The notes under the pieces: model-generated
Database searches by the model: none
What the model was told of the DNA's origin: nothing
What the model saw: only the letters and a program-made list of their open reading frames with translations
Translations under genes and position numbers: made by a program
In this document: piece after piece, positions 3,291 to 30,898 of the stretch
Position numbering within the stretch: the first letter of the stretch is position 1
Layout of the letters: each line of letters starts with the position of its first letter
Assembly (NCBI GenBank): GCA_040830765.1
Contig: JBFOMH010000003.1
Span: 32,001 to 96,000, forward strand
DNA length: 64,000 nt
Reading direction: 5' to 3'
DNA from: Puniceicoccaceae bacterium
GTDB lineage: Bacteria > Verrucomicrobiota > Verrucomicrobiia > Opitutales > Oceanipulchritudinaceae

Positions 3291-5111
3291 ATGAAGCGAA
3301 CGCATCCATACGATCCCATTCAGTGGACCTCTCTGTTCCTCATTATCCTGCTTGTAGCCGTCCTCGGTGGTTGCCGTTCACCCGCTGATGTTGCTCCCCC
3401 GCCAAATCCCGGGCCAGCACCCGATATCCAGAGGGACAAGCGGCTGAGCGGAGATAATCCACAAGCCTCGAGGATTCTGGACTCAGCCGCCGAAGAAGCC
3501 GGGTCGCACCGCATCATCCTCCTTGAGTCGGGCGATGACGCCCTGCTGGCAAGGATCCACCTCATTCGTTCAGCCCGTGAATCCATCGACATCCAGACCT
3601 TCATCTGGGTCTATGACCGAAGCGGGCAATGGGTCTACCGGGAACTGCTGGAAGCCGCCCGTCGTGGTGTCAAGGTAAGGCTGCTCATTGACCAGTTCAT
3701 CAATCCCGAGCTACCGGCGGAGGAATACGCTGCCATCGCCACCGCCCATGAAAACCTGGAAATCCGGCTCTTCAGGCCCCTCACTGTAAATGCCATCAAC
3801 CGGCAATGGGACGTCACCCGACGCACCTTCACCCGCTTTGCGACGATGAACCACCGGATGCATCACAAGGTTTTCCTTGTTGACGGGCAGGCGGCCATTC
3901 TCGGCGGACGCAATTACCAGGACGCTTATTTCGACCGGGACTCCACGCTCAGTTTTCGGGATCGGGATGTCCTCGTAATGGGCCCCGCCTGCGACGACAT
4001 CAGCCGCTTTTTCGAACTCTTCTGGCAGCATGAGATGTCCTTCGAGGCAAGCCGGATGAAGGACCTCAAGAAAGCCCTTGAAACGGATGCGGCCCGTTTG
4101 CCGGATTCCCTCGAAGCCCCGCTGGACCCGATATTCCATGAGGACGACCTGCTGGCCAACCTCTATGATTTGAGAGCTATCCGGCCAACATTCAAGGAAT
4201 GGGTGGTCGGCAAAATCGAGTACATCTCCGACAAGCCGATCAAGGTCACTCAATACAGCAATCCGGGATTCCTCAATCCCTTCGCCAGCCTGAGGAATTT
4301 CATCGCCGAGGCAGACACTGAGGTTCTTATCCAGACTCCTTACTCGGTATTTGAGGACCGGACCTACAAGCGGTGGCGCAAGATTCGCAAGCAACGGCCG
4401 GAAGTCCGGGTCTGCCTCTCGACCAACAGTCTCTCATCCGCCGACCACGTCTATGTCGGCAGCATGGCCCTGAAACAGCGGCGGGCACAGATTGAGAGCC
4501 TCGGCATCGAGCTCTACCTTGCCAAGCCGGTTCCCGGGGACATCCGGGAGATGGTCCCTCGCTACGAAACATTGCTCCATGAGTCTGCCTCATCCCTTGA
4601 TCCGGACTGGGAAGAGGATCCGGAAATCATGCAACTGGACATTGAGGGTCCGCGCTTTTGCATCCATGCCAAGACGATGATCTTCGACCGCAAGATCAGT
4701 TTTATCGGCTCGCACAACTTTGATCCCCGTTCCATGAACCTGAACACGGAATGCGGTGTCGTCATCCGGGATGTCGCCTTTTCGCGGTATCTGGCGGAAT
4801 TTTACGACCGGGCGATCCATCCGGACAACAGTTGGGTCGTGGCCCCGAGGGATTTTGCGCCGATCGTCGGGGAAGTGAACAGTTTTATTGGCCTCGTCTC
4901 CACCAGCTTGCCCCTGTTCGACATCTGGCCGCTGGAGCATGTCTCCTGTTATGAAATGCTTGAAGGGGCGGAACCTCTCTCACCCTACGACGAGTCCTTC
5001 CACGAAAGCTATGAGGATGTTGGCCCCTTCCCCGGACTGGACCTTGGACTCGAACCCGTCAAGGTTCGACTCCTGAGGGCCATTGGGGATCCGGCAGTCC
5101 CCCTGATGTAG
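3291..5111 (+). CDS. Phospholipase D family lipoprotein (ClsC/YmdC-like cardiolipin synthase)
   Basis: Two HxKxxxxD motifs (HHKVFLVD...GGRN and HAKTMIFD...GSHNFDPRS..LNTE) and lipobox LGGC. Confidence 0.88.
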   Translation: MKRTHPYDPIQWTSLFLIILLVAVLGGCRSPADVAPPPNPGPAPDIQRDKRLSGDNPQASRILDSAAEEAGSHRIILLESGDDALLARIHLIRSARESIDIQTFIWVYDRSGQWVYRELLEAARRGVKVRLLIDQFINPELPAEEYAAIATAHENLEIRLFRPLTVNAINRQWDVTRRTFTRFATMNHRMHHKVFLVDGQAAILGGRNYQDAYFDRDSTLSFRDRDVLVMGPACDDISRFFELFWQHEMSFEASRMKDLKKALETDAARLPDSLEAPLDPIFHEDDLLANLYDLRAIRPTFKEWVVGKIEYISDKPIKVTQYSNPGFLNPFASLRNFIAEADTEVLIQTPYSVFEDRTYKRWRKIRKQRPEVRVCLSTNSLSSADHVYVGSMALKQRRAQIESLGIELYLAKPVPGDIREMVPRYETLLHESASSLDPDWEEDPEIMQLDIEGPRFCIHAKTMIFDRKISFIGSHNFDPRSMNLNTECGVVIRDVAFSRYLAEFYDRAIHPDNSWVVAPRDFAPIVGEVNSFIGLVSTSLPLFDIWPLEHVSCYEMLEGAEPLSPYDESFHESYEDVGPFPGLDLGLEPVKVRLLRAIGDPAVPLM

Positions 5112-5135: not shown

Positions 5136-5795
5136 TCATTCCAACCCGTCCCGGGCAATGTTCTGGAAGTCCGTCTGGTTGACGAAGCCCTTCTGCATGG
5201 CGTAACGGATCAATTCGACCGTTGAGTGCAGTCCCAACTTGCGCATGATGCGCGCCTTGTGGTTCTGCACGCTGACCGGCCGCAGGTTCAGGCTCTCGGC
5301 AATCCGCTCGTTGGAGGCACCGGCCCCGAAGTAACGGAGCAGTTCCTGTTCCCGCTCGGTCAGGATTTTTGAAAACGCCAGGGGGTCCGTCTTCTGGATA
5401 AGCATGTTCTGCTGCACCGTGGCGGCATAATAGCAATTTCCTTCCCCAAGTTGCTGCACCGCTTTCTTCAGTTCCTCAATGGACTCGGTGTTCTTGTCAA
5501 CGAATCCAAACAGGCCGGTCATGAAGACCCGGTAGAGGGTGTACTCGTCGGTGCGTCCCGAGACACCGAGGATCCGCAGCTTGGGATTGACCTTGAGCAT
5601 GCGGTTGGCCAAGTCCAGACCGCTCCCGTCCGGCAGCTCAATATCGAGAATGGCGACATCCGGATTGTATTTTTCAAAGGCCTTCCACCCATCCTTGATA
5701 GTCTGGCAAGTGGCCACCAGTTCGAATTTTTCGGTCAGGCAATTACTGACCAGATCGATGCCCAGCTTTTGATCTTCAATGATGATGGTTTTCAT
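5136..5795 (-). CDS. NarL/LuxR-family response regulator
   Basis: Receiver domain (ED..., LDIELPDGSG, K) plus LuxR HTH (LTEREQELL...IAESLNL..VSVQNHKARIMRKLG). ATGA overlap with the kinase stop. Confidence 0.93.
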   Translation of the reverse strand: MKTIIIEDQKLGIDLVSNCLTEKFELVATCQTIKDGWKAFEKYNPDVAILDIELPDGSGLDLANRMLKVNPKLRILGVSGRTDEYTLYRVFMTGLFGFVDKNTESIEELKKAVQQLGEGNCYYAATVQQNMLIQKTDPLAFSKILTEREQELLRYFGAGASNERIAESLNLRPVSVQNHKARIMRKLGLHSTVELIRYAMQKGFVNQTDFQNIARDGLE

Positions 5796-8700
5796 GACCG
5801 TCTCCATTTCCGCAGTTCCAGTAGCCCTACGTGTATCTCGTCCATGTCACCGTTCTGGGCGGACACTTGTAAGTCACGACATACCTGCTGCATGGCGCGA
5901 TTATTCCGGATCATGGCGAGGGTAGTCAAGCGATGGGCGCATCGACGGAGATTTTCCCACTCGTAGCGGTCTCCGTAAAGGAGGCATTCGTCGATATGTT
6001 TGTAAATTTCCTCCATCACCTCATCGGCGGCTACCATATCGGTGGTGCTGGCGAGCTCCGGCTTGTAATTCTGGATATTGGCCAGACAGTAGGCCAGGCG
6101 GGCAGCTGTCAGTGGCTTGCTGATATAGCCATTCATGCCCGCTTCCTCGCTTTCGCGCTTTTTCTCCCCATCGGTATAGGCCGTTACGGCGACCAGGATA
6201 ACCTCGTCATCAGGATCCTTCTTGCGGTGGCGGCGGGCGATTTCCGGGCCGGTCAACCCGGGAAGGTCCCAATCCAGCAGGGCAAGGTAGTAGTCGTTCT
6301 TCTCCAGCTGTTCGAGGGCATCCCGGCCGTTCTCAGCCTCGTCGCAGGAACAACCAATGGTCTCAAAGAACTCCACCACCGAACGGCGGTTGTAGACCAG
6401 GTCATCCACGACGAGAATCTTTTTACCCTTCAACTGGGCCAGGACCGCCTCCTTGTCGAGCTCGGTGGCTCCCTCGACACGATCGAAGCGCCCCTTGAGG
6501 ACAAAGCGGCAACCGGAAGGTTGATTGTCTTCCAGCCGCAAGTGTCCCCCCATGGCATGGGCGATTTCCTGACAAATGGACAATCCCAGTCCCGTCCCGT
6601 GCTTCCCGCTTTCCACACCGCTTTCACCCCGGTAGAAGCGCTCAAAAATGAATTCGCGTTCGGACTCGTCAATGCCGATGCCCCAGTCGGCAACATACAG
6701 TTCAAGGTCGACTTCATGGTCGGTGATGTTGATGCAGGTGGCTCCAATCTCCACCCGGTCCGACTCCGCGTACTGGAGGGCATTAACCAGCAGGTTGCTC
6801 AAAATCTTGATCATCCAGTTCCGGTCTGTCCGGATGACGACATCAGCCAGTTCCGGGGAAATGACCGTGTTCAGGTTCACCATCTCATGCTGAAGGCTGA
6901 ACTGGTTCTGTTTCACCGAGCTCTCGATCAGGTCGTGGATGGAAACAGGTATGAAGGCCGTCGGGATGTTTTTCTGATCAATGGCCGAAAAGTCGAGGAT
7001 CTCACCCAGCATCCGGTCAACAATGACTCCGAATTCGGTCAGGTCCTTCAAGCGGGGATCATCTCCGGATTCCGGTGGATTCCTGGTCAGGGTCTCGGTA
7101 ATCATGAGAACCCCGTTCAAGGGATTGCGGATGTCATGCGACAAGCCGGCGAGGAAGTTAGTCCGAGCTGCGGTGGCGGCCTCCAATTCCCGTGTCTGTT
7201 TCTTGACCTCGCTTTGCAACCAGAGGTTGGTCCGCTTCAATTGCGCCGAACGCAGGGCGAACAAGCCCCAGAAAAAGAAGAGGGCCGCCACGACCATGAC
7301 TCCCTGGTAGATGGGATTCAAGTACCAGGGCGGGGCGATCCCGAATTGCACCAGCTTGGAGGAGGAAACATTTCCATTCGGGTGCATGGCCCGCAACTCC
7401 ACCGTGAAGTTGCCATGCCCGGCAAACTGCAGGGACGGATCCTGCAAATTGACGTTTCGCCACCGCTGCTCGTTGATGCGGTACTGGACGATGCTGGGAA
7501 TGTCCGGCTCGGAGAAATTCACCTGCAGGTCAATGAAGTGCATGCCGCTGGGAATGGTCCGGTCCTCGATGCGCTTGTCTTCCAGCAGCAGGGCAAACTC
7601 GACCCGGGGTGCCGCCGCTCGGGACAATTCCGGAACCGCATACCAACCGACACCATGCGCCCCGACGATGCCCAGCCGCTCACCCCCACCCATCAGGCCA
7701 ATTGCTTCCCCGGCCTGCTCCAGGAACGGAACGGTCATCATGATGTTGCCGGCGTCGGAATACATGCCGACGGCAAGGTTTCGCGTGGCTGGATCTTCAA
7801 AAAGGACATAGGTATCCTCGCCCGAGTTACTGAGTGACCTGACGGTCCATCCTGGTGCCAGGGGGAAGCGTTCCAGCGATTCACCCCTCCATCGATAGAC
7901 AACCGTCGGGGAGGCCAGCCAGACCGCATTCTCACCCGCCGCATGGGCAATGATGACGTCCTCCATCTTGTAGGGGAGCTCCACTGAGCGCCATCCGGAC
8001 CCTTCCCGGATTAACTGCAGAATCTGCTTGCCCCCGATGAGGGCGTAAAAGCCGGAATCCAATTCTCCAATCAGCTCAATCTGGCGCTCATCCTTGTGAA
8101 TCAGTTCGAGTTCGAATGTGTCGGAAACTGAGTAGATTCCCTCCACCCCAAGGGCAAAGCCCGTTGATTGGCCCCACTTGAAGCTGGATATCGGTTGGGT
8201 GAGCTCTCTTACCGACCAATCTTCTCCATTAAATTCTTCGTAAATATTAACTGCTCCCATCACTGGGAGGCCGTCCTTGTCAACATCCACCCAGCTCGCC
8301 GTCCGCAGGAGTTCACCTTTCTCATAACCATCATTATCCAACCGGATCCAACCCTCATCCAGAAAGAGAAAGCCTGCCTCTTCCCCAGCCAGAAAATGCC
8401 GGACACTGTCCCCTTCCCAAAGCTCCCCGGAAGGGAAAAACTTGGACTCCCTGCTGAAGTCAACCACCCCCACGCCCTTGTCACCAAGCATGGCGATCCG
8501 GGTTTTATCAAGGGCCCGGATCTTGAAAACATCGCCCAGATCCAGCTTTTCATCGCTGCTAACGCTTTCACTGATGCGTTCCAGTGACCGGTTCCATACC
8601 GCCACCCCGAGCGGGTACTCAGTAATGGCGATATAATCGCCAAGACCCGCTGAATTATTGATGCCCTTCTTGAAAAAGTCCCCGTAGTTGGAATTGATAA

Positions 8701-9406
8701 GAACCGGTTCATCGTTCTTCTTTCCCGACCAGTAATATACCCCGAAATTGGTCCCGAAGGTGTACTTCTCCCCGGTCCTTTCGAGCCAGGCGACCAGTTC
8801 TCCGTCCGTCATTTCAATGGGAAGGATAAGTTCCCGGCCTTCGGCCGTTATGCGCCAGATACCAGAACCTGACCCGACATACAAAAACGGATTTTCCGCA
8901 TCGGCATGGTAGACTACCGGCCGGGGATTAAAGGTCTCTTTCCAGTGCTGTCCGACTTGGAACGTATCTGGCTCGATCCATCCAAATCCCTCTGAAGCAA
9001 TATACCACAAACGGTCCAGGTACCACTCCAACGACCATACAAAACCGACTTCAAGGGTTGAGAATCCGACAAGTTTTCCCGATCTGTCGAAGCCGCCAAC
9101 ACCGGCGGAATCAGCAAACCAGAGTGTGTTTCCATTCGGTGAAACGGCGAGTGCGGTAACGCGCCCGGAGGGCCGTATTGTCTCCCACTGGTCACCGCTG
9201 AGCCGATACAATCCCTCCCCTGCGAGCCATATATCATCCGCGAACAGGCTGACATCATGATAGCTTGCCGGCGGCACCGATTCGAGCTTTTCGGCGAAGC
9301 GGTAGGCGGGACCCGTTAATGGATCCGCAATCAGGACGTTGATAAAATTTAATCCAACGAGGAATAGGAACTGTGGAAATATGGATGAAGACATTTTTTT
9401 AAACAT
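5792..9406 (-). CDS. Hybrid sensor histidine kinase: large periplasmic beta-propeller-like/Y_Y_Y-like sensor, TM, HisKA, HATPase, receiver, Hpt-like tail
   Basis: H-box SHDIRNPLNG, N-box NLLVNA, G1 DWGIG, G2 GTGLGL, receiver VDD/DWDLP/KP and C-terminal CAHRL. The real start is probably 9406 or 9394 (signal-like MSSSIFPQFLFLVGLNFINVLIA), not 9562. Confidence 0.9.
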   Translation of the reverse strand: MFKKMSSSIFPQFLFLVGLNFINVLIADPLTGPAYRFAEKLESVPPASYHDVSLFADDIWLAGEGLYRLSGDQWETIRPSGRVTALAVSPNGNTLWFADSAGVGGFDRSGKLVGFSTLEVGFVWSLEWYLDRLWYIASEGFGWIEPDTFQVGQHWKETFNPRPVVYHADAENPFLYVGSGSGIWRITAEGRELILPIEMTDGELVAWLERTGEKYTFGTNFGVYYWSGKKNDEPVLINSNYGDFFKKGINNSAGLGDYIAITEYPLGVAVWNRSLERISESVSSDEKLDLGDVFKIRALDKTRIAMLGDKGVGVVDFSRESKFFPSGELWEGDSVRHFLAGEEAGFLFLDEGWIRLDNDGYEKGELLRTASWVDVDKDGLPVMGAVNIYEEFNGEDWSVRELTQPISSFKWGQSTGFALGVEGIYSVSDTFELELIHKDERQIELIGELDSGFYALIGGKQILQLIREGSGWRSVELPYKMEDVIIAHAAGENAVWLASPTVVYRWRGESLERFPLAPGWTVRSLSNSGEDTYVLFEDPATRNLAVGMYSDAGNIMMTVPFLEQAGEAIGLMGGGERLGIVGAHGVGWYAVPELSRAAAPRVEFALLLEDKRIEDRTIPSGMHFIDLQVNFSEPDIPSIVQYRINEQRWRNVNLQDPSLQFAGHGNFTVELRAMHPNGNVSSSKLVQFGIAPPWYLNPIYQGVMVVAALFFFWGLFALRSAQLKRTNLWLQSEVKKQTRELEAATAARTNFLAGLSHDIRNPLNGVLMITETLTRNPPESGDDPRLKDLTEFGVIVDRMLGEILDFSAIDQKNIPTAFIPVSIHDLIESSVKQNQFSLQHEMVNLNTVISPELADVVIRTDRNWMIKILSNLLVNALQYAESDRVEIGATCINITDHEVDLELYVADWGIGIDESEREFIFERFYRGESGVESGKHGTGLGLSICQEIAHAMGGHLRLEDNQPSGCRFVLKGRFDRVEGATELDKEAVLAQLKGKKILVVDDLVYNRRSVVEFFETIGCSCDEAENGRDALEQLEKNDYYLALLDWDLPGLTGPEIARRHRKKDPDDEVILVAVTAYTDGEKKRESEEAGMNGYISKPLTAARLAYCLANIQNYKPELASTTDMVAADEVMEEIYKHIDECLLYGDRYEWENLRRCAHRLTTLAMIRNNRAMQQVCRDLQVSAQNGDMDEIHVGLLELRKWRRS

Positions 9407-9425
9407 ACTGTAAAAATGGAGCCCT

Positions 9426-9593
9426 ATGAAAAACATCAAACGCATCCTAATACTCGTTGTGGCTATCTGTTTAGCCTCAGTCGGGCTAAATGCACAAGCT
9501 GAAACCGTCAGTAAGAAGGTAATCAAGGATTTGGACTCCAAGAGTTCCGGTTCCATTCTCATGAGTATCTACTGTATCGTCGGCATCAAGTAG
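9426..9593 (+). CDS. 55-aa secreted peptide; candidate RiPP/signal-peptide precursor
   Basis: Manual translation: MKNIKRILILVVAICLASVGLNAQA|ETVSKKVIKDLDSKSSGSILMSIYCIVGIK. It has a basic n-region, an h-region and an AQA cleavage site, with GGAG upstream, and lies 57 bp before the YcaO-like gene. Confidence 0.75.
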   Translation: MKNIKRILILVVAICLASVGLNAQAETVSKKVIKDLDSKSSGSILMSIYCIVGIK

Positions 9594-9650
9594 CCCTTAG
9601 GAGTAACGCAACACTGAATACTAACCGTAACGTATAACAAAGGCCTAGAA

Positions 9651-10631
9651 ATGACCACCCTGTCACAGTCAGCAACGCTGCCCGTTCCCTATGATTTGAG
9701 CGCAGCACCCGAATGGTTCCTCAAGAAAGCACGCTTCGCCAAGCGGTTTTTCCTGAATCTTGCCCCCATCCGCTATGCGCTGGCTGCTGAAGAAGGGGGT
9801 CCTATCAGCCAGGTGGAATACGGCCAGGCGGAATACATGGGCCAGCTCTGGCAGCTGTGCCGGGCGACCTTGCAGGAGGATTTCCAGCACCCGATGGGGA
9901 AAAAGCTGGAGTTGTTCTCCTCCGCAGACGGCTCGGGCATGGGGCTGACACGGCTTGAGGCCCGCGCCAAGGCTATCTCCGAAGCCCTCGAACGCTGGGC
10001 CTACACGGAGACCAGTTCCGGACCGGACGCTGTTCTCTATGGATATCCGTATTCCATGAGTACCAAGGGCATGGCCGCCTTTCCCAGTGTTTTCCCGGGA
10101 ATGGCACGCCGCACCGCCATTTCAGAGGCTTTTGAATACTACTCGGTGGACGCGTGGTGGGGAGGCACTCTCAACCACTGGATAATCAATCGGGACGATT
10201 CAACTATCGTCTTCATCAACCAGCCTGAGTTCAAGGGACATATCGCCTTGGCTATCCGGCACCTCGACCTGAACGACTATGTCGCCGCTTACGGGATAGG
10301 ATCGGGTGCTACGGCTGAAGAAGCCGAACTCAAGGCACAACTGGAAGCCTGCCGCTCACAGACCATTCTCGAACGGCGTGATGCGACACCCCACCGTGTC
10401 CGTAACAAGCCCGTCCTGGAAATGGAACAACGCCTGCTCGAGTTCTCTTCGCGCGAAGGCTTTGCCATGGTCAAGGATCGTCTTGCCAGTCGCCCGTGGT
10501 TGCCGGAAATCAAGCCCAACGTCATCTTCGACGGACCGGTCAAGGGACCATGGAATAAGTACGCCCATGTCTGGCGCTACGCACTGGAGCCCTTCCCGAT
10601 TAAGTATCGCCAACGTCAGTTTGTTGCCTGA
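9651..10631 (+). CDS. YcaO-like protein (stand-alone, short)
   Basis: Three YcaO-type ATP/Mg motifs: GSGMG...AKAISEALERWA, TKGMAA...AISEAFE and YGIGSG...AELKAQLE. Confidence 0.75.
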   Translation: MTTLSQSATLPVPYDLSAAPEWFLKKARFAKRFFLNLAPIRYALAAEEGGPISQVEYGQAEYMGQLWQLCRATLQEDFQHPMGKKLELFSSADGSGMGLTRLEARAKAISEALERWAYTETSSGPDAVLYGYPYSMSTKGMAAFPSVFPGMARRTAISEAFEYYSVDAWWGGTLNHWIINRDDSTIVFINQPEFKGHIALAIRHLDLNDYVAAYGIGSGATAEEAELKAQLEACRSQTILERRDATPHRVRNKPVLEMEQRLLEFSSREGFAMVKDRLASRPWLPEIKPNVIFDGPVKGPWNKYAHVWRYALEPFPIKYRQRQFVA

Positions 10632-10698
10632 CCAGGCACCGCTGCTGCCAATCTGCTGTCAATCTCCACAAACCGTCTTCATCCTAACCACAGGCACA

Positions 10699-11193
10699 AT
10701 GAGCACGCATGAAAGCACTTTCAACTTCCCGTTCATCTCCAACCTGATTTCTGACAAGGCTGGTGAGCGAACGAGCCAATTCCGTAAACAGGCTGTCTCC
10801 ATGAAAGAAAAAGCCCTCTGCCTTGACGACGACCCCCTTTCGCTTCGTCTGGTTGAGCACCTGTTGAAGGAGCGCTACCAGGTTGTTTCCTGTCCCACCA
10901 TTGATGCCGCAGTCAAGGCGGTACGGCGGCACAAGTTCTGCCTCTTCCTGTGCGACTATCATCTCGGGGAGCATTTCACTGGCGCTCGCGCCAACGAAAT
11001 CCTCACCCGGAAATACCGTTTCAATCCAATCCACCGGGTTCTGATCACTTCCTACCCGTCGCCGGAAATTGAAAAGGAGACCCTGGCCAGCGGATTTGAA
11101 AGAGTATTCGCAAAACCGCTACGTCGAGAGTTCCAATCCTATTGCCTGAGCCTTTACCGTCCTCCCCTCAAGAGTGGCATGGCCGTAGGCTGA
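10699..11193 (+). CDS. Single-domain response regulator (CheY-like receiver)
   Basis: LCLDDD, LFLCDYHLG, LITS and FAKP motifs. Start is 10699 or 10801. Confidence 0.82.
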   Translation: MSTHESTFNFPFISNLISDKAGERTSQFRKQAVSMKEKALCLDDDPLSLRLVEHLLKERYQVVSCPTIDAAVKAVRRHKFCLFLCDYHLGEHFTGARANEILTRKYRFNPIHRVLITSYPSPEIEKETLASGFERVFAKPLRREFQSYCLSLYRPPLKSGMAVG

Positions 11194-11409
11194 ATCCAGC
11201 AAGCGAAGCCCCCGTCATGATTGCCATTACCACCATAGGCCTTCTGGCCAATGGAACCCACCCCGTCCCCCGGGATGGCCACCCGAGACCTCGTACGGTC
11301 CGGAGGGGTTGCCGACCCCTGCCCAAGCCCGCCACTGTCCGCGTCAGGAAGGATCGGGGAGAACGCTAAAATTATTGCCAGCGGGATAAGGAAACGGCTT
11401 CCTTGAAGC

Positions 11410-13599
11410 ATGACTCTCGCTGCCAGACTGACGGCCTTGTTGATTATCGTCGCCGTCACGCCCGACCTCCCGGGCAAACCCAAGCCGGTTCCGGCTACCG
11501 GGCATGGAGTGCCACCGCCTCCGGTTGAGCTGAGCGGATCAAACGACACCCTGCTGCAGGCCAACCTGGCACCTGAGAACCAATATTCGATCGGCAGTCC
11601 CTCCGATGAAGAGCAGGCCATTGTCGAGATGATTAACCGGGCCCGTGCGGATGCCGACGCGGAAGCGCTACGTCTCGCCAATACCACCGACCAGGATGTC
11701 CTGGATGCGATCTGCTTTTTTGGTGTCAACCTGCCGGAGATGATCAACCAGTTCGCTGCCCTCCCCCAGTCCCTTCCCCCGCTTTCCATCCATCCTGAAT
11801 TAACGGATATGGCCCGCCTTCATTCCCAGGACATGTTTGACAATGTTTTCCAGGGCCACACCAGTTCCGGCACTCCCCCCGCTCCCTACTCCGCCGGGGA
11901 CACACTCTCAGACCGTGCTGCCGAGTTCACCTATGCCTACACGACGCTCGGAGAGAATGTTTATGCCTTCGCCAGATCTGATGCCTATGGTCATGCCAGT
12001 TTTGAAATCGACTGGGGATTCGATGCCTTTGGGATGCAAAGCCCACCGGAACACCGGGAAACGATTCATGATGCCCGATTTAAGGAAATTGGAATTGGCA
12101 TTATCAAGGGAACTAATTCGACCGAGTCCCTGACCGTTGGTCCCTTGCTGATGACCCAGGTATTCGGCGAGCCCCAGTCGTCAGGTCCCTTTATTACGGG
12201 CGTCGCCTATTACGACCTCAATGGAAATGGATTTTATGACGCCGGAGAGGGACTTGGCGGATTGACCGTTTCCACCGAGGAAACGACGGCCTGGGCACTG
12301 ACCGCAAACAGCGGGGGTTACTCCATTCCGGTCCCGTCGGATGGCGCCTACACGGTTACATTTTCCGGGTTAGGCATCACGCCCCAGACTACGGTCGTCA
12401 ACGTGGCGTCCGGGGAAAACATCAAGCAGGACTTTGCCATTGGATATGTCCCACCCGTCCTCTCCGGCTCATCCACGCCCTTTACCGGGATCGACAACGA
12501 ATATGCCATATCTCCAACGCCAGGAGCTACTGGCTACTGGTTCAAGGTATATACTGAAAATGTCACTACATGGCTGGAGGGGGCCGAGAACGGTAACACG
12601 GATGTCACGATCCTCAACAGCCCTGAATACGTCGTCATCCAGGGAGAGGTGGTCCGCAACGGGGCCAATGCCTTTCACCTTGCCCATCCGGGAGGCGGAA
12701 GCGACCAGGTCATCACGCTTCAGCATACCATATTTCCAACCGCCAGCAGTGAACTTCGTTTTGGCAGCAAGCTGCAGTATGCAACCTCCTCGCAAACGGC
12801 CAATGTGGACGTATCCACCAACGAAGGAATATCATGGACCAATATTTACCGCCAGACAGGATCCAACTCCAGCGGGGAAGCCGGTTTTGTCTACCGTTTT
12901 GTCCCTCTGGGAAGTTATGCCGGCCAACCGCTGCGGATTCGCTTCCGCTACTCCGTTGAAGGATGCAACCCCTCCATCTACGATGGTATCACCACAAACA
13001 TTGGCTGGATTATCGACGACATTACGGTGGCCAACGCGACCCGCTTGCTCCCGGAAAGCGAATTCATCCTGGGGTCCCCAATAGCGACTTTCAATCCCGC
13101 CACCGCCGGGGAATTCTACCTCACTGCCCGTCCGGTCAACAATTTCAAGGGCTTCCCCTATGGTCCGCTCCTCAAGGTAACATCCGGACCTGCCGGGCCG
13201 CAGGACTTGTGGCGGCTGGATAACTTCCTCCAGGCCGACCTCAATGACTCAGCCAAGGAATCGACAATATGGGGCGACCTCGCTGATCCCGACAAGGATG
13301 GATTGGGCAACTTACTTGAGTACGCCCTGGCGGGTAATCCCAACCTCGCCGATGCCCACATGATTATGCCGCAGTTCGGCCGGTCGGGAGGTGTCCTGAC
13401 GCTCAGTTACACGATGCAACGCTCTGAATTGAGCTACCGCGTCCTGACGAATACGGATCTCCAGGACCAGCCATGGACATCAACCGGGGTCAGCCAGACG
13501 CCGGATCCCGACACCGCGAGCGAAGGCACCCCCATAGAGGCTTCCGTGACCCTCGGCGTTGGTCGCCGTTTCCTGCAGCTTGAGGTGGTTGAGCCCTGA
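11410..13599 (+). CDS. Secreted CAP/SCP-domain protein with prealbumin-like and beta-sandwich domains and a verrucomicrobial C-terminal domain
   Basis: INRAR, ARLHSQDM..FQGH, GENV, HRETI..FKEIGIG (CAP); FITGVAYYDLNGNGFYDAGEGL; C-terminal DPDKDGLGNLLEYAL. Confidence 0.82.
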   Translation: MTLAARLTALLIIVAVTPDLPGKPKPVPATGHGVPPPPVELSGSNDTLLQANLAPENQYSIGSPSDEEQAIVEMINRARADADAEALRLANTTDQDVLDAICFFGVNLPEMINQFAALPQSLPPLSIHPELTDMARLHSQDMFDNVFQGHTSSGTPPAPYSAGDTLSDRAAEFTYAYTTLGENVYAFARSDAYGHASFEIDWGFDAFGMQSPPEHRETIHDARFKEIGIGIIKGTNSTESLTVGPLLMTQVFGEPQSSGPFITGVAYYDLNGNGFYDAGEGLGGLTVSTEETTAWALTANSGGYSIPVPSDGAYTVTFSGLGITPQTTVVNVASGENIKQDFAIGYVPPVLSGSSTPFTGIDNEYAISPTPGATGYWFKVYTENVTTWLEGAENGNTDVTILNSPEYVVIQGEVVRNGANAFHLAHPGGGSDQVITLQHTIFPTASSELRFGSKLQYATSSQTANVDVSTNEGISWTNIYRQTGSNSSGEAGFVYRFVPLGSYAGQPLRIRFRYSVEGCNPSIYDGITTNIGWIIDDITVANATRLLPESEFILGSPIATFNPATAGEFYLTARPVNNFKGFPYGPLLKVTSGPAGPQDLWRLDNFLQADLNDSAKESTIWGDLADPDKDGLGNLLEYALAGNPNLADAHMIMPQFGRSGGVLTLSYTMQRSELSYRVLTNTDLQDQPWTSTGVSQTPDPDTASEGTPIEASVTLGVGRRFLQLEVVEP

Positions 13600-13606
13600 G
13601 GTTTCC

Positions 13607-14767
13607 CTAATTGGGGCTGGCTACAAAACGGATGAGCAGGGCATCATGCTCAAGGGGCAGGAGGATTTGCTCCAGGACGATGGCCCGGCCATCGGAAATC
13701 CGGGTATCCAGGTTGAGAACAGAACCGGCCATTTGCCACGTTTCGCCATCGTGGCTGTAGTGGATATTTAATTCAACTTCCGCACCGAGGTTCCTCCAAT
13801 ATACCAGGGAATATCCATCTTCAGGATCGATCGCCTGGGAGATAGAGGGCCGGCTGCCGGCATCGCTGGGGTCGGATGCGAACAGGTATTCCATCAATTG
13901 CGACCAGCCATCCCTGTCTGTGTCAGCGTTTTCCACTGGCTCCAAGGCATATCCCCCGCTCCAGTCAGCAAAGGAGACAACGGGAACGGTGGCCGGGTTC
14001 ATCACACCAACCGCATCCAAGTCAAATCCGGACGTAATGATCGTTGGATACGGATCATAAATCGCGTAGCCCTCGCAATCCATCCGGGTGCCATCCCCCG
14101 GTATGTCAACCAGGCGGACATACCGGATCGCCTCCATGTTTAAATACGGAAAATTCTCCTCCACCGATTCAGCATAGGCTTCACTGAACCGGTCATAGCC
14201 CTGCAGCAGGGCAGCATGGACCGCGGCGAGCTCGGCCAGGTCAAACGGGGTTCCAAATCCCCCCGCGTGCTTCCCGGCAAATCCCTCGATGTATTCCGGT
14301 TGTAATACCCCGAATGCACCGACGGGCTCCGCAGTCAGGGAGTAATTGGGAAACCGGACAAAATGCAGGCCATCTGAGGAAACCTCCACATAGGCCAATT
14401 CGAGAAATGTCCCGCTGAAGCTGTTTTCAAACACGGCAAAGTCGTAGCCCCCACCATCCCGGATTGAGGGCGTGAATTCCAGGACTGCCGAGCCGCCACG
14501 ACCCAATACGACGACGTCATTCCCGTTCAGAAAAGCCGGACCGAGACCTGCTTCCGGCGTTTTCCACTCCTCAGCCACTTCCTCGCCGTACGTAACCTCG
14601 ATCCCTGTGGCCCAACCCTTGATGACCGGGTCTTGATTCCAGATAGCGACTGTTCCCGGTTCCCCGGCGGCCGGACTGAAGGGAAACACCGGAGCTTCAT
14701 ATCCCAGTGCCAGCGTTGGCGGAAATCCGGTAATGGCCAGCAGCCCAAACTGAAGAAGGTGCCTCAT
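13607..14767 (-). CDS. Secreted/cell-surface protein associated with a TonB-dependent receptor
   Basis: Signal peptide; [30 protein letters not shown] and GFDLDAV motifs; starts 6 bp after the TBDR stop. Confidence 0.75.
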
Positions 14768-30455: not shown

Positions 30456-30460
30456 AAGGG

Positions 30461-30855
30461 CCGGTTGGCGGTAAGCCGGATTCTGTTCCCCTACCGAAGC
30501 AGGAGTGGCTCCCATTTGTCTATCCCACCGAAGCGGAATCCCCCGCTTCGTGCCAAGGCACTACGCGGAGGTGCGACTTACCCGGGACCGATGGACGGGC
30601 CGCCCGATCCCCTATTTAGTCTTGCACCAGATTGGGTTTTCCGTGCCCCTTCGGTTACCCTCCGGGCGGTGAGCTCTTACCTCACCTTTTCACCCTTACC
30701 CCAAGACGAGCTCGGGGCGGTATGTTTTCTGTGGCACTGTCCGTCACGCCGGCCTCACGCCCGGCGTGCCCCCGTTTTCACGGGGAATCTTGCCCTGTGG
30801 TGTCCGGACTTTCCTCTACCACCCCGAAAGATGACAGCGGGAGCCCGCCAACCGG
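30461..30855 (-). ncRNA. rnpB: RNase P RNA (class A)
   Basis: Minus strand contains GAGGAAAGUCCGG, GUGCCACAGAAA, GUGCAAG and the 3' ACAGAAUCCGGCUUA. The ends CCGGUUGGCGG/CCGCCAACCGG pair as P1. Confidence 0.95.
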
Positions 30856-30898
30856 TTAATGGACCAGCCTGCTCAATTCCCACCCCATGGCAACTCCC

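Follow-up and report, generated by a model that had tools for sequence, protein, structure and literature searches.

A class-wide gene module of Opitutia (Verrucomicrobiota) combining a small cysteine peptide with predicted export, a compact YcaO-like enzyme and a hybrid sensor kinase

Does a short reading frame with a signal peptide, lying beside a YcaO-like gene and divergent from the genes of a two-component system, belong to a signalling module, and is its product the signal? The question is raised by a locus in a 64,000-nucleotide stretch of contig JBFOMH010000003.1 of a Puniceicoccaceae bacterium (the window), for which a preliminary description proposed a self-contained pheromone system. 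All five genes named in that description are open reading frames at the positions it gave them. A small Cys peptide with predicted export, a stripped-down YcaO and a sensor kinase with its regulator make up a gene module found across one class of Verrucomicrobia; this class is the Opitutia (Verrucomicrobiota), and the module is a conserved signalling module. It is apparently undescribed and looks like a modified-peptide signalling or stress system. Its established part consists of real genes, an enzyme with the YcaO fold and the class-wide retention of the gene set.

Whether YcaO homologues keep a short signal-peptide ORF and kinase/LuxR genes beside them, the first check suggested in the preliminary description, was answered strongly in the affirmative across Opitutia. 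A profile of the peptide matched in 75 of 80 sources, each time immediately ahead of the YcaO-like gene and on its strand, and had no match elsewhere among 20,531 six-frame segments, save a weak one 1.8 kb upstream in L066. The five sources with no match include L024 (N-masked), L063 (10 nt of upstream sequence) and L052 (154 nt). At most loci, a gap of -6 to 115 nt separates the nearest peptide from the YcaO gene. A large hybrid kinase diverges from this pair at 52 of 55 loci (49 by a filter of >900 aa, plus L009, L041 and L062, which have split or over-extended ORFs), and a relative of the LuxR-type regulator lies 3.9-6.6 kb upstream of the YcaO-like gene at 45 of the 52 loci with enough sequence. 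An additional two-component protein is encoded downstream of the YcaO-like gene at 50 of 71 loci (two-component domains in the first downstream ORF at 48 by Pfam, with L004 and L007 added by BLAST). This third protein varies between a receiver, a PAS kinase and a short kinase, and it belongs to the module in most loci, so that "self-contained" needs a qualifier. The kinase is missing from L023, which has the peptide and the YcaO, and L066 gave no kinase match.

Outside the module genes, the flanks showed no conservation (114 ORFs, 20 loci), and no metal-handling or glycan-utilisation genes recurred among them. The absence of partner genes stated for the window extends to its relatives: among the 114 flanking ORFs of 20 loci and 71 downstream ORFs, E1/ThiF, TfuA, a C39 peptidase and a dedicated or recurrent exporter were not found, a nitroreductase was present at one locus only (L036) and ABC ATPases occurred twice (L010 and L039) in non-recurrent contexts. 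The module is chromosomal and has been retained through the whole class. The synteny of peptide ORF, YcaO-like gene and kinase/LuxR genes across Opitutia therefore points to a real functional unit, which these genes very probably form, and to the small ORF as a genuine coding sequence for a conserved, precursor-like peptide whose Cys is conserved as well.

The 55-aa precursor peptide (9426..9593, plus strand), assigned from its ORF, family alignment, frame test, dN/dS and profile matches, is a real gene rather than a product of chance. The sequence GGAG lies 6 nt ahead of its ATG, and the start is kept in all but one of 85 peptides. In a six-frame comparison of nine sequences over the same nucleotides, the peptide frame was the most conserved (identity 0.52, mean BLOSUM62 2.57), the antisense shadow frame reached 0.41 and 1.40, and dN/dS was 0.031 against the closest relative, L001. 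When a profile of 68 peptides from other clades was searched against the window's 1,167 six-frame segments, the window peptide was the sole match, a weak one (E=0.09). No Pfam or NCBIfam family matches the peptide.

In total, 77 peptides align as one family with the consensus MK..LLL..G...AAE..DP....C, and lengths range from 49 to 88 aa. The N-terminus of the window peptide resembles, by eye, a Sec-type signal peptide (MKNIKR, a hydrophobic core, AQA); in the family, the hydrophobic core spans about 15 residues and leads into a small-x-small (AxA) site that is conserved and contains an invariant Ala. These features make export through Sec quite likely. The predicted exported part of the window peptide comprises about 30 residues, ends in SIYCIVGIK and holds one conserved Cys, and window-clade peptides have this single Cys and no His. 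The distance of the Cys from the AxA site is near-constant in the 77-peptide alignment; a late Cys (after residue 30) is present in 71 of 85 peptides and a C-x(1-3)-C motif in 32, and the 14 peptides with no late Cys include both L075 peptides and, at most loci with two peptides, the one nearer the YcaO gene. Within the precursors of L025, L045, L067 and L079, the Cys-containing segment is repeated, an arrangement resembling that of multi-core modified-peptide precursors. The residue preceding the Cys is often Pro, which is unusual for cyclodehydratases. The peptide is probably the substrate of the YcaO-like enzyme.

This enzyme (9651..10631, plus strand), a compact stand-alone YcaO-superfamily protein of 326 aa, has neither a signal peptide nor a fused partner domain and belongs to a compact subfamily of about 300 aa. 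It scores 23.8 bits against the Pfam YcaO cut-off of 25.7 bits, with 25 profile positions covered, and also misses the NCBIfam cut-offs (TIGR03604, 16.6 vs 219 bits). The AF2 model (pLDDT 87.5, pTM 0.87) retrieved only YcaO enzymes with Foldseek among all 41 PDB matches with E<=1e-3 (probability 1.00, TMq 0.34-0.56). The label "YcaO-like gene" in the preliminary description is thus upheld at the level of the fold and not by Pfam score, and the YcaO fold of the predicted structure is an assignment that holds at fold level only. Residues E111, E114, R115, E159, E162, E232 and R235 are invariant in 25 diverse relatives, and the invariant Glu and Arg residues, on three helices, correspond in alignment to positions 1-25, ~113-165 and up to ~272 of the Pfam YcaO profile; three ATP-binding motifs are reportedly common to all YcaOs (PMC8120280). 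The invariant acidic residues, together with purifying selection on the gene (dN/dS 0.026), speak for a functional active site.

Azoline cyclodehydratases (LAP/TOMM/cyanobactin; McbD, LynD/TruD and the SagD family) share this fold (6gri, 6gos, 4v1v, 4v1t and 4bs9 were matched), have a Cys precursor gene adjoining the enzyme gene and conserve acidic residues on three helices. Unlike these systems, the module has a YcaO of about 300 aa with neither an E1-like/Ocin-ThiF partner nor a recognition domain, no dehydrogenase (except in L036) and a signal peptide in place of a leader. A PxPxP C-terminus, the motif of azoline-forming YcaO cyclodehydratases, is not visible in the module YcaO. The best structural matches were to stand-alone or protein-modifying YcaOs, the archaeal McrA thioamidation enzymes (6cib/6pe3) and the YcaO peptidase 7u58 among them. 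Stand-alone YcaOs, including E. coli YcaO acting on uL16, are described as functioning with no E1 partner (PMC13063428), so that thioamide formation or peptide cleavage is as open here as azoline formation. The enzymes of this group are, however, reported to be larger (360-650 aa) and either to have no adjoining small peptide gene (E. coli) or to act on a large protein, and the module differs from them also in the absence of TfuA.

On the minus strand lies the hybrid sensor histidine kinase (5792..9406; Pfam HisKA, HATPase_c and Response_reg), with an N-terminal hydrophobic segment, a periplasmic sensor of about 660 aa and a second membrane segment at about residues 695-715, followed by HisKA, HATPase_c and receiver domains and, in the last ~95 residues, a possible HPt (Hpt 15 bits, E 0.027). 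In its longest form (5792-9562), the kinase ORF runs antisense to 137 nt of the 55-aa ORF. A start near 9406 (MFKKMSSS...) is likely from N-terminal alignment and leaves only 19 nt between the divergent start codons of kinase and peptide. Profile comparison identifies the sensor as a double propeller of the Bacteroides HTCS type with a Y_Y_Y domain: the sensor profiles of the window clade and of Opitutaceae align with each other (hhalign probability 100%, E 3.2e-44, 716 columns), and the Opitutaceae profile matches the HTCS sensor structures 3v9f, 4a2l and 3ott (E 2.7e-48 to 4e-34). The homology to HTCS sensors (BT4663, 4a2l/4a2m) is full-length and takes in the Reg_prop propeller repeats and the Y_Y_Y domain. 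HTCS proteins carry a fused AraC DNA-binding domain and act on polysaccharide utilisation loci, whereas the output of the module kinase is a separate LuxR-type regulator and its presumed neighbouring target is the peptide/YcaO operon. BT4663, one of the solved relatives, is reported to bind heparan-sulfate disaccharides (PMC9067506), so that the cue for the module kinase may not be the peptide at all.

The NarL/LuxR-type response regulator (5136..5807, minus strand; Pfam Response_reg 62 bits, GerE 61 bits) has NarL-class regulators as its best NCBIfam matches. It starts at ATG 5807 or ATG 5795, and the kinase stop TGA (5794-5792) overlaps both, the first by 16 nt and the second as ATGA, which bears out the translational coupling first proposed. 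The stand-alone receiver of 164 aa (10699..11193, plus strand; Pfam Response_reg 35.6 bits) begins at ATG 10699 within a longer GTG ORF (10306-11193), and the 164-aa form is retained in the relatives L002, L005, L006 and L009. Its acidic pair (LDDD), phospho-acceptor Asp (LCDYH), S/T (LITS) and K (AKP) are all present, and a receiver lies directly downstream in all ten window-clade loci (eight Pfam-confirmed). The peptide, mini-YcaO and receiver genes are 57 and 67 nt apart, and neither gap holds a terminator, which suggests a single operon. A candidate promoter or regulator site for it is the DNA block GTTGATAAAATTTAATCCAA (9337..9357), noted for its nucleotide-level conservation, which contains an imperfect palindrome and lies 70-90 nt upstream of the peptide ATG, within the first kinase codons; it is the most invariant stretch of the 9-locus alignment and unique in the window at up to 3 mismatches.

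According to the pheromone reading, one of two live readings of the module, the mini-YcaO would use ATP in the cytoplasm to activate a precursor backbone amide near the conserved Cys, the likeliest product being a thiazoline (-18 Da). The precursor would then exit through Sec and, judging from its sequence features, be cleaved by signal peptidase I after AQA. In the least supported step, the modified peptide of about 30 residues would act in the periplasm on the double-propeller sensor of the hybrid kinase, which would pass phosphate to the translationally coupled LuxR-type regulator and thereby act on the peptide operon through the conserved DNA block, with the co-transcribed receiver competing for phosphate. 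Bufferins are reported as a case in which Cys-modified RiPP precursors bear Sec signal peptides and are modified before export (PMC11626156). The mechanism as a whole, with the peptide feeding into the adjacent kinase, is a serious possibility that stops short of being probable, and feedback of the peptide on the kinase is, if anything, a little more tentative.

The peptide-sensor co-variation looked for gave no specific signal past shared descent. In partial Mantel tests on 50 sources, r was 0.18 for peptide and sensor given the kinase core, 0.30 for peptide and kinase core given the sensor, and 0.31 for peptide and YcaO given the sensor; the window's peptide shares 87-91% identity with those of L003/L004, and its sensor only 43%. 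In a diderm, a Sec substrate remains in the periplasm. A Sec-exported peptide of about 30 residues would thus reach the periplasm and not the outside, so that feedback or an effector role within the periplasm is likelier than "quorum sensing". Nisin NisK/NisR, agr and com are peptide-autoinduced two-component circuits of monoderm bacteria, and as in these systems, precursor, modifying enzyme, kinase and regulator are encoded together in the module, with a feedback loop plausible. They rely on dedicated exporters and proteases (AgrB, ABC/C39) and on kinases with membrane-embedded or small-loop sensors, whereas the module has predicted Sec export into the periplasm and a double-propeller sensor of about 660 aa.

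Alternatively, the peptide may be the output: the kinase would sense an external cue (for instance a glycan fragment, as in BT4663, or envelope, metal or redox stress) and the regulator would induce the peptide operon. The YcaO-modified Cys peptide would be a periplasmic effector, such as a bufferin-like thiazoline/thiol metal or redox buffer, and the co-transcribed receiver or second kinase would tune the response. The HTCS homology of the sensor and the glycan ligand reported for BT4663, the unspecific co-variation, the periplasmic fate of Sec substrates, the C-x(1-3)-C motifs and the repeated Cys cassettes are consistent with this reading, as is the conservation of the peptide while the sensor diverges fast (dN/dS 0.11 vs 0.022 for the kinase core). 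Bufferins (MNIO/DUF692, gig/buf operons), described as Sec-exported, Cys-heterocyclised periplasmic copper chelators with dedicated regulators, provide a parallel (PMC11626156): in that account, as in the module, a Sec-type signal peptide replaces the classical leader, modification probably falls on Cys residues and would take place in the cytoplasm, ahead of Sec export and delivery to the periplasm, no dedicated exporter or leader peptidase appears and a dedicated regulator responds to envelope signals. The module differs in its YcaO-superfamily enzyme, with neither MNIO nor DUF2063 partner, in its shorter peptides (49-88 aa vs 80-120) and in its regulation by a hybrid kinase and LuxR-type regulator rather than a sigma/anti-sigma pair. 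Against an output role, the window-clade peptide has one Cys and no His and so would be a poor metal site, the extra co-transcribed signalling protein is more in keeping with a signalling component than with a simple effector, and neither metal-handling nor glycan-utilisation genes recur nearby. This second live reading is a real possibility, slightly less likely than the first.

It is unlikely that the small protein stays uncleaved in the membrane as an accessory of the kinase, with its hydrophobic stretch as anchor and its Cys-bearing tail contacting the sensor in the periplasm, and that the YcaO-like protein is non-catalytic or has another substrate, such as a signalling protein. The peptide gene is only 19 nt from the kinase start, and the peptide shares the general layout of MgrB, reported as a 47-aa membrane protein of the PhoQ/PhoP regulon that inhibits PhoQ in a negative feedback loop (PMC8404706). 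Both are proteins of about 50 aa in which a hydrophobic N-terminal segment precedes a periplasmic tail with Cys, and each is encoded alongside a two-component system that probably controls it and on which it could act (PMC8404706), and whole proteins can be YcaO substrates, as in the reported thioamidation of ribosomal protein uL16 by E. coli YcaO (PMC13063428). However, MgrB, as described, is unmodified and stays in the membrane, whereas the module peptide has a signal-peptidase-like site and a dedicated modifying enzyme; the two have no sequence relationship. A core of about 15 residues followed by the conserved AxA site is more readily explained by a cleaved signal peptide than by an anchor, the peptide ORF accompanies the YcaO gene even in the kinase-less L023, and the invariant acidic residues and low dN/dS favour a working YcaO active site.

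An antimicrobial azoline peptide (a bacteriocin-like RiPP), its production induced by the two-component system, is more improbable still. In the distant member L036, a nitroreductase-family gene, the usual azoline dehydrogenase partner, lies 10 nt downstream (E 4e-40), and many antibacterial azol(in)e peptides are reported to be YcaO-made (PMC6395948, PMC7298704). Nevertheless, no immunity gene, dedicated exporter, leader peptidase or dehydrogenase recurs in Opitutia loci, Sec would put the product in the producer's own periplasm, and chromosomal, class-wide retention is unlike the typically patchy occurrence of bacteriocin loci. The probability that the 55-aa ORF arose by chance or as a shadow of the kinase 5' end, its YcaO-kinase adjacency meaningless, is negligible: the antisense overlap with the longest kinase ORF, with third codon positions shared, and the want of a match in curated families would fit, but this reading is contradicted by the frame test (peptide frame best conserved of six), the same position of the peptide in 75 of 80 sources, the conserved ATG and its recovery by the leave-clade-out profile, and Opitutaceae homologues (e.g., L038 and L025) lie clear of the kinase ORF.

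The locus comprises two divergent arms. The plus arm contains a small ORF of 55 aa without any Pfam match (9426–9593, +), the gene for a YcaO-like protein of 326 aa, called mini-YcaO here (9651–10631, +), and the gene for a receiver of 164 aa (10699–11193, +; Pfam Response_reg, 35.6 bits), which is nested in a longer ORF with a GTG start at 10306; the gaps in this operon are 57 nt and 67 nt. The minus arm encodes a kinase, with a longest ORF of 1256 aa (5792–9562, −; Pfam HisKA, HATPase_c and Response_reg), and a regulator of 223 aa (5136–5807, −; Response_reg and GerE), and NCBIfam agrees with Pfam for the genes of the locus. The ORF list of the window contains all five genes where the preliminary description had placed them, and the translational coupling of kinase and regulator that it proposed holds, because the kinase stop codon TGA (5794–5792) overlaps the regulator start (ATG at 5807 or ATGA at 5795). 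The locus is chromosomal, given the RNase P RNA of bacterial class A at 30456–30856 (−; 235.9 bits), and the host bacterium is Puniceicoccaceae-like. Among the 79 related public loci carrying relatives of mini-YcaO (L001–L079), the nearest is L001, with 98% identity in the YcaO-like protein. A PLD-like protein (3291–5111, +), a CAP-domain protein of 729 aa with a CarboxypepD_reg-like domain (11410–13599, +) and a protein of 386 aa without Pfam family (13607–14767, −) are encoded nearby, but are considered to lie outside the module, because their synteny is confined to the close relatives of the window (window clade).

The arrangement proposed in the preliminary description is widely conserved in the related loci. 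The peptide was found in 75 of 80 sources (the window and the 79 loci, 80 having been taken in of 244 matching loci). Where 4.3 kb or more of upstream sequence is available (55 loci), a divergent kinase longer than 900 aa ends near the YcaO-like gene in 49, or in 52 when L009, L041 and L062, with split or over-extended ORFs, are included; there is no kinase at L023 or L066. Of the 52 loci with 5.3 kb or more of upstream sequence, 45 have a LuxR-type regulator past the kinase; it shares the kinase strand in eight of these (L028 and the window clade) and is convergent with the kinase in the other 37. The first downstream ORF has two-component domains in 50 of 71 loci: 48 by Pfam (12 stand-alone receivers, 16 proteins of the PAS-HisKA-HATPase(-REC) type and 20 short HATPase_c proteins of about 255–370 aa), together with L004 and L007, where BLAST identified receivers. 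The other 21 belong to T2SSF (three), ThsB_TIR (two), HpcH, PrpD, EamA and nitroreductase families (one each) or to no family (12), and the 114 ORFs that flank 20 of the loci revealed no recurrent function. These conserved neighbours define a unit consisting of a regulator, a kinase and, divergently, one or more peptides, mini-YcaO and an accessory two-component protein. The ThsB-type TIR-like matches are located at 5874–6473 in L021 (E 9e-7) and 2643–3194 in L024 (E 5e-5). L009, labelled as an uncultured Agromyces sp., has a truncated kinase ORF; it shares an identical peptide with L004 (Opitutales) and the same 80% YcaO identity to the window, so its label is probably wrong.

Mini-YcaO is predicted to have the YcaO fold. 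Its AF2 model (pLDDT 87.5, pTM 0.87) matches 41 PDB structures at E ≤ 1e-3, all of them YcaO enzymes (Foldseek probability 1.00, TMq 0.34–0.56), including archaeal thioamidation enzymes, LynD/TruD, McbD, E. coli YcaO and a YcaO peptidase; the next matches (E ≥ 1.6e-3) are unrelated dsRBD proteins. Searches of the PDB with the 326-aa sequence or with a profile of the YcaO-like proteins returned noise, or a weak and ambiguous match to MJ1094 at E 2.1. The Pfam model of the YcaO superfamily (PF02624/IPR003776) scored the window protein at 23.8 bits, below its cut-off of 25.7, with profile positions 1–25 alone matched, and 12 relatives at 18.2–31.1 bits, five of them above the cut-off, with colinear matches over profile positions of about 98–272. 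The YcaO-like identity assigned earlier is therefore upheld by the fold, but not by the curated Pfam threshold. The SagD family model TIGR03604, with a cut-off of 219 bits, failed on the window protein (16.6 bits) and on the 12 relatives (15–28 bits), and neither NCBIfam nor Pfam has a model of its own for this subfamily. The stretches ISEALERWA, GMAAFPG, A..E..E and A...A..E..R are invariant in 25 members, down to 29% identity. Their invariant residues lie on three helices (E111/E114/R115, E159/E162 and E232/R235) and are colinear with the Pfam model; three ATP-binding (ATP/Mg) motifs are reported to be common to all YcaOs (PMC8120280).

Homologues of mini-YcaO form 495 clusters at E ≤ 1e-3, mostly of about 295–326 aa, with names from Puniceicoccaceae, Opitutaceae, Opitutales and "Verrucomicrobia". 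When 1.84 billion representatives (50% identity) were searched with a profile, 699 proteins were retrieved at E ≤ 1e-3, 309 of them at E ≤ 1e-30. The best 150 of the 699 are all 270–374 aa long, which is too short for fusion to an E1 or recognition domain, and an atlas feature search returned Verrucomicrobiota clusters of about 295 aa and one Pseudomonadota cluster of 339 aa. The gene is under purifying selection (dN/dS 0.026). Mini-YcaO is a member of a distinct, compact (about 300 aa) and unfused subfamily far from the canonical YcaOs.

The lack of an E1/ThiF partner, TfuA, peptidase and exporter, already remarked on for the window, extends to the relatives. No TfuA, ThiF/E1, nitroreductase or C39 peptidase is encoded by the 114 flanking ORFs of 20 loci, and the 71 downstream ORFs include no E1-like/Ocin-ThiF partner and no FMN dehydrogenase, save a nitroreductase in L036; the supposed absence of a dehydrogenase thus stands for all the downstream and flanking ORFs checked except in that locus. 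Azoline-forming cyclodehydratases (TOMM/LAP) have in common with mini-YcaO an adjacent precursor with a Cys residue, but they work with an E1-like/Ocin-ThiF partner or fused domain and an FMN dehydrogenase, which mini-YcaO lacks. TfuA-dependent thioamide YcaOs have an adjacent tfuA, whereas no TfuA domain was found in the 71 downstream and 114 flanking ORFs, although thioamidation may proceed without TfuA. E. coli YcaO is described as acting on a protein, uL16, and thioamide formation without an adjacent tfuA gene has been reported (PMC13063428); more than one chemistry may thus apply here, and a thiazoline would be the simplest guess for the product, given the conserved Cys. L036 (8550–11467; bin labelled Bdellovibrionales) encodes a family member with 33% identity, divergent from an ORF of 465 aa that was called kinase-like from its H-box and G-box, read by eye. 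Its nitroreductase-family gene, 10 nt downstream (E 4e-40), fits an azoline-forming ancestry; no peptide ORF was recognised in this locus by the profile search.

As 137 nt of the peptide ORF lie antisense to the longest kinase ORF, and the two share third codon positions, it was necessary to exclude a shadow ORF. When the kinase N-termini of ten sources were aligned, the membrane-anchor sequence FPQFLFLVGLNFIN proved to begin after a Met at about 9406, and the kinase "extension" upstream of this point simply mirrors the peptide. In nine sequences compared over identical nucleotides, the peptide frame shows an identity of 0.52, a mean BLOSUM62 score of 2.57 and no stops, versus 0.41, 1.40 and 10 stops in the antisense frame (for which the region examined for stops was slightly longer), and this comparison led to rejection of the antisense kinase extension as a true gene. 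The peptide ORF has a dN/dS of 0.031 relative to L001 and a GGAG motif 6 nt before its ATG, and the corresponding ORFs of Opitutaceae are free of any overlap with the kinase ORF (L038 and L025, for example). The kinase start, frame conservation, selection and the non-overlapping relatives all favour a genuine gene. The dS relative to L001 is 0.25 for the peptide gene and 0.42 for the YcaO-like gene, as opposed to 0.61–0.98 for neighbouring genes, which hints at added DNA or RNA constraints on the first two.

The peptides constitute a family that is tied to the YcaO-like gene. In the 79 loci, small ORFs that lie upstream of this gene and begin like a signal peptide served as seeds for a profile that was searched against 20,531 six-frame stop-to-stop segments of the loci and the window. 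All 86 matches lie on the YcaO strand upstream of the YcaO-like gene, mostly within about 0.7 kb (0.8–1.1 kb in L019, and 1.8 kb for a weak match in L066), and no other match was found among these segments. Seed peptides match by construction, so the independent evidence comes from the eight non-seed ORFs recovered (L016, L019 twice, L021, L056, L060, L071 and L066) and from leaving out clades: a profile based on 68 peptides, none of them from the window clade, retrieves only five window-clade peptides (E 0.0014–0.096), and a window-clade profile retrieves only four Opitutaceae peptides. No match was obtained in five sources: L024 (N-masked), L052 and L063 (154 nt and 10 nt upstream, respectively), L030 and L036. 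No Pfam or NCBIfam model matched any of 24 peptides tested.

The 77 distinct peptides form one alignable family with the consensus MK..LLL..G...AAE..DP....C, one invariant Ala and one Gly shared by at least 90%. The N-terminus resembles that of a Sec substrate, with a basic start, a hydrophobic core of about 15 residues and a small-x-small site containing the invariant Ala, and the family Cys is found about 23–25 residues after this putative site. A Cys follows residue 30 in 71 of 85 peptides, a C-x(1-3)-C motif is present in 32 and a DP motif in 49. Type IV pilin-like, lipoprotein, Tat and C-terminal sorting signals were rejected, as the layouts of these motifs do not fit the sequence. Two tandem peptide genes are present in ten loci (L011, L012, L015, L018, L019, L058, L059, L069, L076 and L075). 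In the first nine of these, the first peptide ends in ...PC or SC plus 3–5 residues, and the second, YcaO-proximal one (MTPTQRILFG...AESFDPVF...RLS type) has no Cys, except in L019; the two peptides of L075 are near-identical, both Cys-less and without a DP motif. The Cys segment is duplicated in the precursors of L025 (9764–9985), L045 (4098–4322), L067 (9724–9987) and L079 (1581–1784), with APDCSTYCD or LPAPGCNSTCSW occurring twice, for example, and these precursors resemble multi-core RiPP precursors.

The DNA upstream of the peptide gene contains candidate regulatory sites. The block GTTGATAAAATTTAATCCAA (9337–9357), within the first codons of the kinase, is the most invariant stretch of a nine-locus alignment, more conserved than the surrounding coding sequence and unique in the window. 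It contains an imperfect palindrome, GATAAAATTTAATC, and may serve the peptide operon as a promoter or as a site for its regulator. A subgroup of Opitutaceae loci (L038, L043, L047, L048, L053, L061, L074, L077, L046, L039, L054 and L033) has blocks unlike that of the window clade, GCAAG...AAAAA.CACCC and, just before the ribosome-binding site, GCAACGCGATACT; these lie about 10–110 nt upstream of the peptide ATG, at positions comparable to that of the window-clade block, and are likewise candidate sites for a promoter or regulator. A scan of 9000–11600 for consensus sigma-70 promoters gave no sites, and terminator-like sites in this region were not above shuffles, with none between the genes of the plus-strand operon.

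The sensor of the kinase can be connected to sensors of solved structure. Pfam detected Reg_prop in 17 and Y_Y_Y in eight of 32 sensors, and neither in the seven from the window clade. The sensor profile of the window clade alone reached only E 0.017 against the PDB, but it aligns over 716 columns with that of the Opitutaceae (probability 100%, E 3.2e-44). The Opitutaceae profile, which contains no window-clade sequence, matches 3v9f (2.7e-48), 4a2l/4a2m (2e-43) and 3ott/3va6 (4e-34), all periplasmic domains of Bacteroides hybrid two-component systems (HTCS). By transitivity at the profile level, the window sensor is homologous to these solved HTCS sensors. In the strict sense, an HTCS has a DNA-binding output fused to the kinase; the window kinase has no such domain, and its regulator is encoded by a separate gene. 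The C-terminal tail of about 95 aa after the kinase receiver scores below the cut-off for Hpt (15 bits, E 0.027). 4A2L/4A2M are described as BT4663 (PMC8534201), the ligand of which is given as a heparan-sulfate disaccharide (PMC9067506). The association of this sensor class with glycan fragments weakens the case for peptide sensing, although the kinase may yet respond to a peptide.

The adjacent hybrid kinase had been proposed as the receptor of the peptide, but co-variation provided no sensor-specific signal. In Mantel tests on 50 sources, with the near-duplicates L001, L009 and L032 left out, every component co-diverges with every other (r 0.54–0.58), whereas partial correlations are small, and that between peptide and sensor (0.18–0.21) is no stronger than that between peptide and kinase core (0.30) or between peptide and YcaO given the sensor (0.31). 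Within the window clade, the sensor is the fastest-diverging part (82%, 43% and 43% identity to the window in L001, L003 and L004) and the peptide stays similar (98%, 87% and 91%, respectively). The dN/dS of the sensor is 0.11 (relaxed, not diversifying), versus 0.022 for the kinase core.

The module can be seen as a variation on known kinds: RiPPs made by YcaO enzymes, RiPPs with a Sec signal and peptides linked to two-component systems. The reading that we tentatively favour, at somewhat short of an even chance, is that of a YcaO-modified, Sec-exported Cys peptide with production tied to the adjacent phosphorelay and probably acting back in the periplasm, for which MgrB-PhoQ offers the closest logic of small-protein feedback (PMC8404706). 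In a nearly equal rival reading, itself rather doubtful, the peptide is an output and would serve as a periplasmic effector like the bufferins, Cys-modified RiPPs made by MNIO enzymes. Bufferins are described as having Sec-signal precursors, forming Cys heterocycles and chelating copper in the periplasm (PMC11626156); the N-terminal layout of the precursors studied here would fit a Sec signal of this kind. Bufferins depend, however, on MNIO (DUF692) and DUF2063, neither of which is encoded by the window neighbours or by the 71 downstream and 114 flanking ORFs of the relatives.

The favoured coupling of a modified peptide to the phosphorelay has a stronger form, which seems unlikely: the Sec-exported, modified peptide of about 30 residues would be the ligand, activating or inhibiting, of the HTCS-type double-propeller kinase. 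It would be the first YcaO-dependent signalling peptide, in a feedback or pheromone circuit of diderm Opitutia based on a minimal, partner-free YcaO, and would represent a new RiPP class in which a signal peptide replaces the leader. Circuits of the agr, com and nisin types have a dedicated processing or export protein, whereas none (AgrB or ABC-C39 transporter) was recurrent in the 71 downstream and 114 flanking ORFs.

No description of this YcaO/peptide/two-component arrangement was found in the literature covered, in which subscription journals are thinly represented and an earlier mention is possible. RiPP biology would gain a subfamily of partner-free YcaOs of about 300 aa, a conserved link between a modifying enzyme and phosphorelay proteins, and a new precursor family using a Sec signal peptide, a feature of RiPP precursors documented so far mainly for the MNIO-made bufferins, according to PMC11626156. 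For signalling, the module would provide a test of whether propeller sensors of the HTCS type, which are known to sense glycans, read or respond to a modified peptide, and of peptide-based feedback or communication in Verrucomicrobia. The module is small (four to five genes) and is present in the cultured strains Horticoccus sp. 23ND18S-11 (L025) and Oleiharenicola lentus 23ND54W-5 (L051), so these predictions are directly testable.
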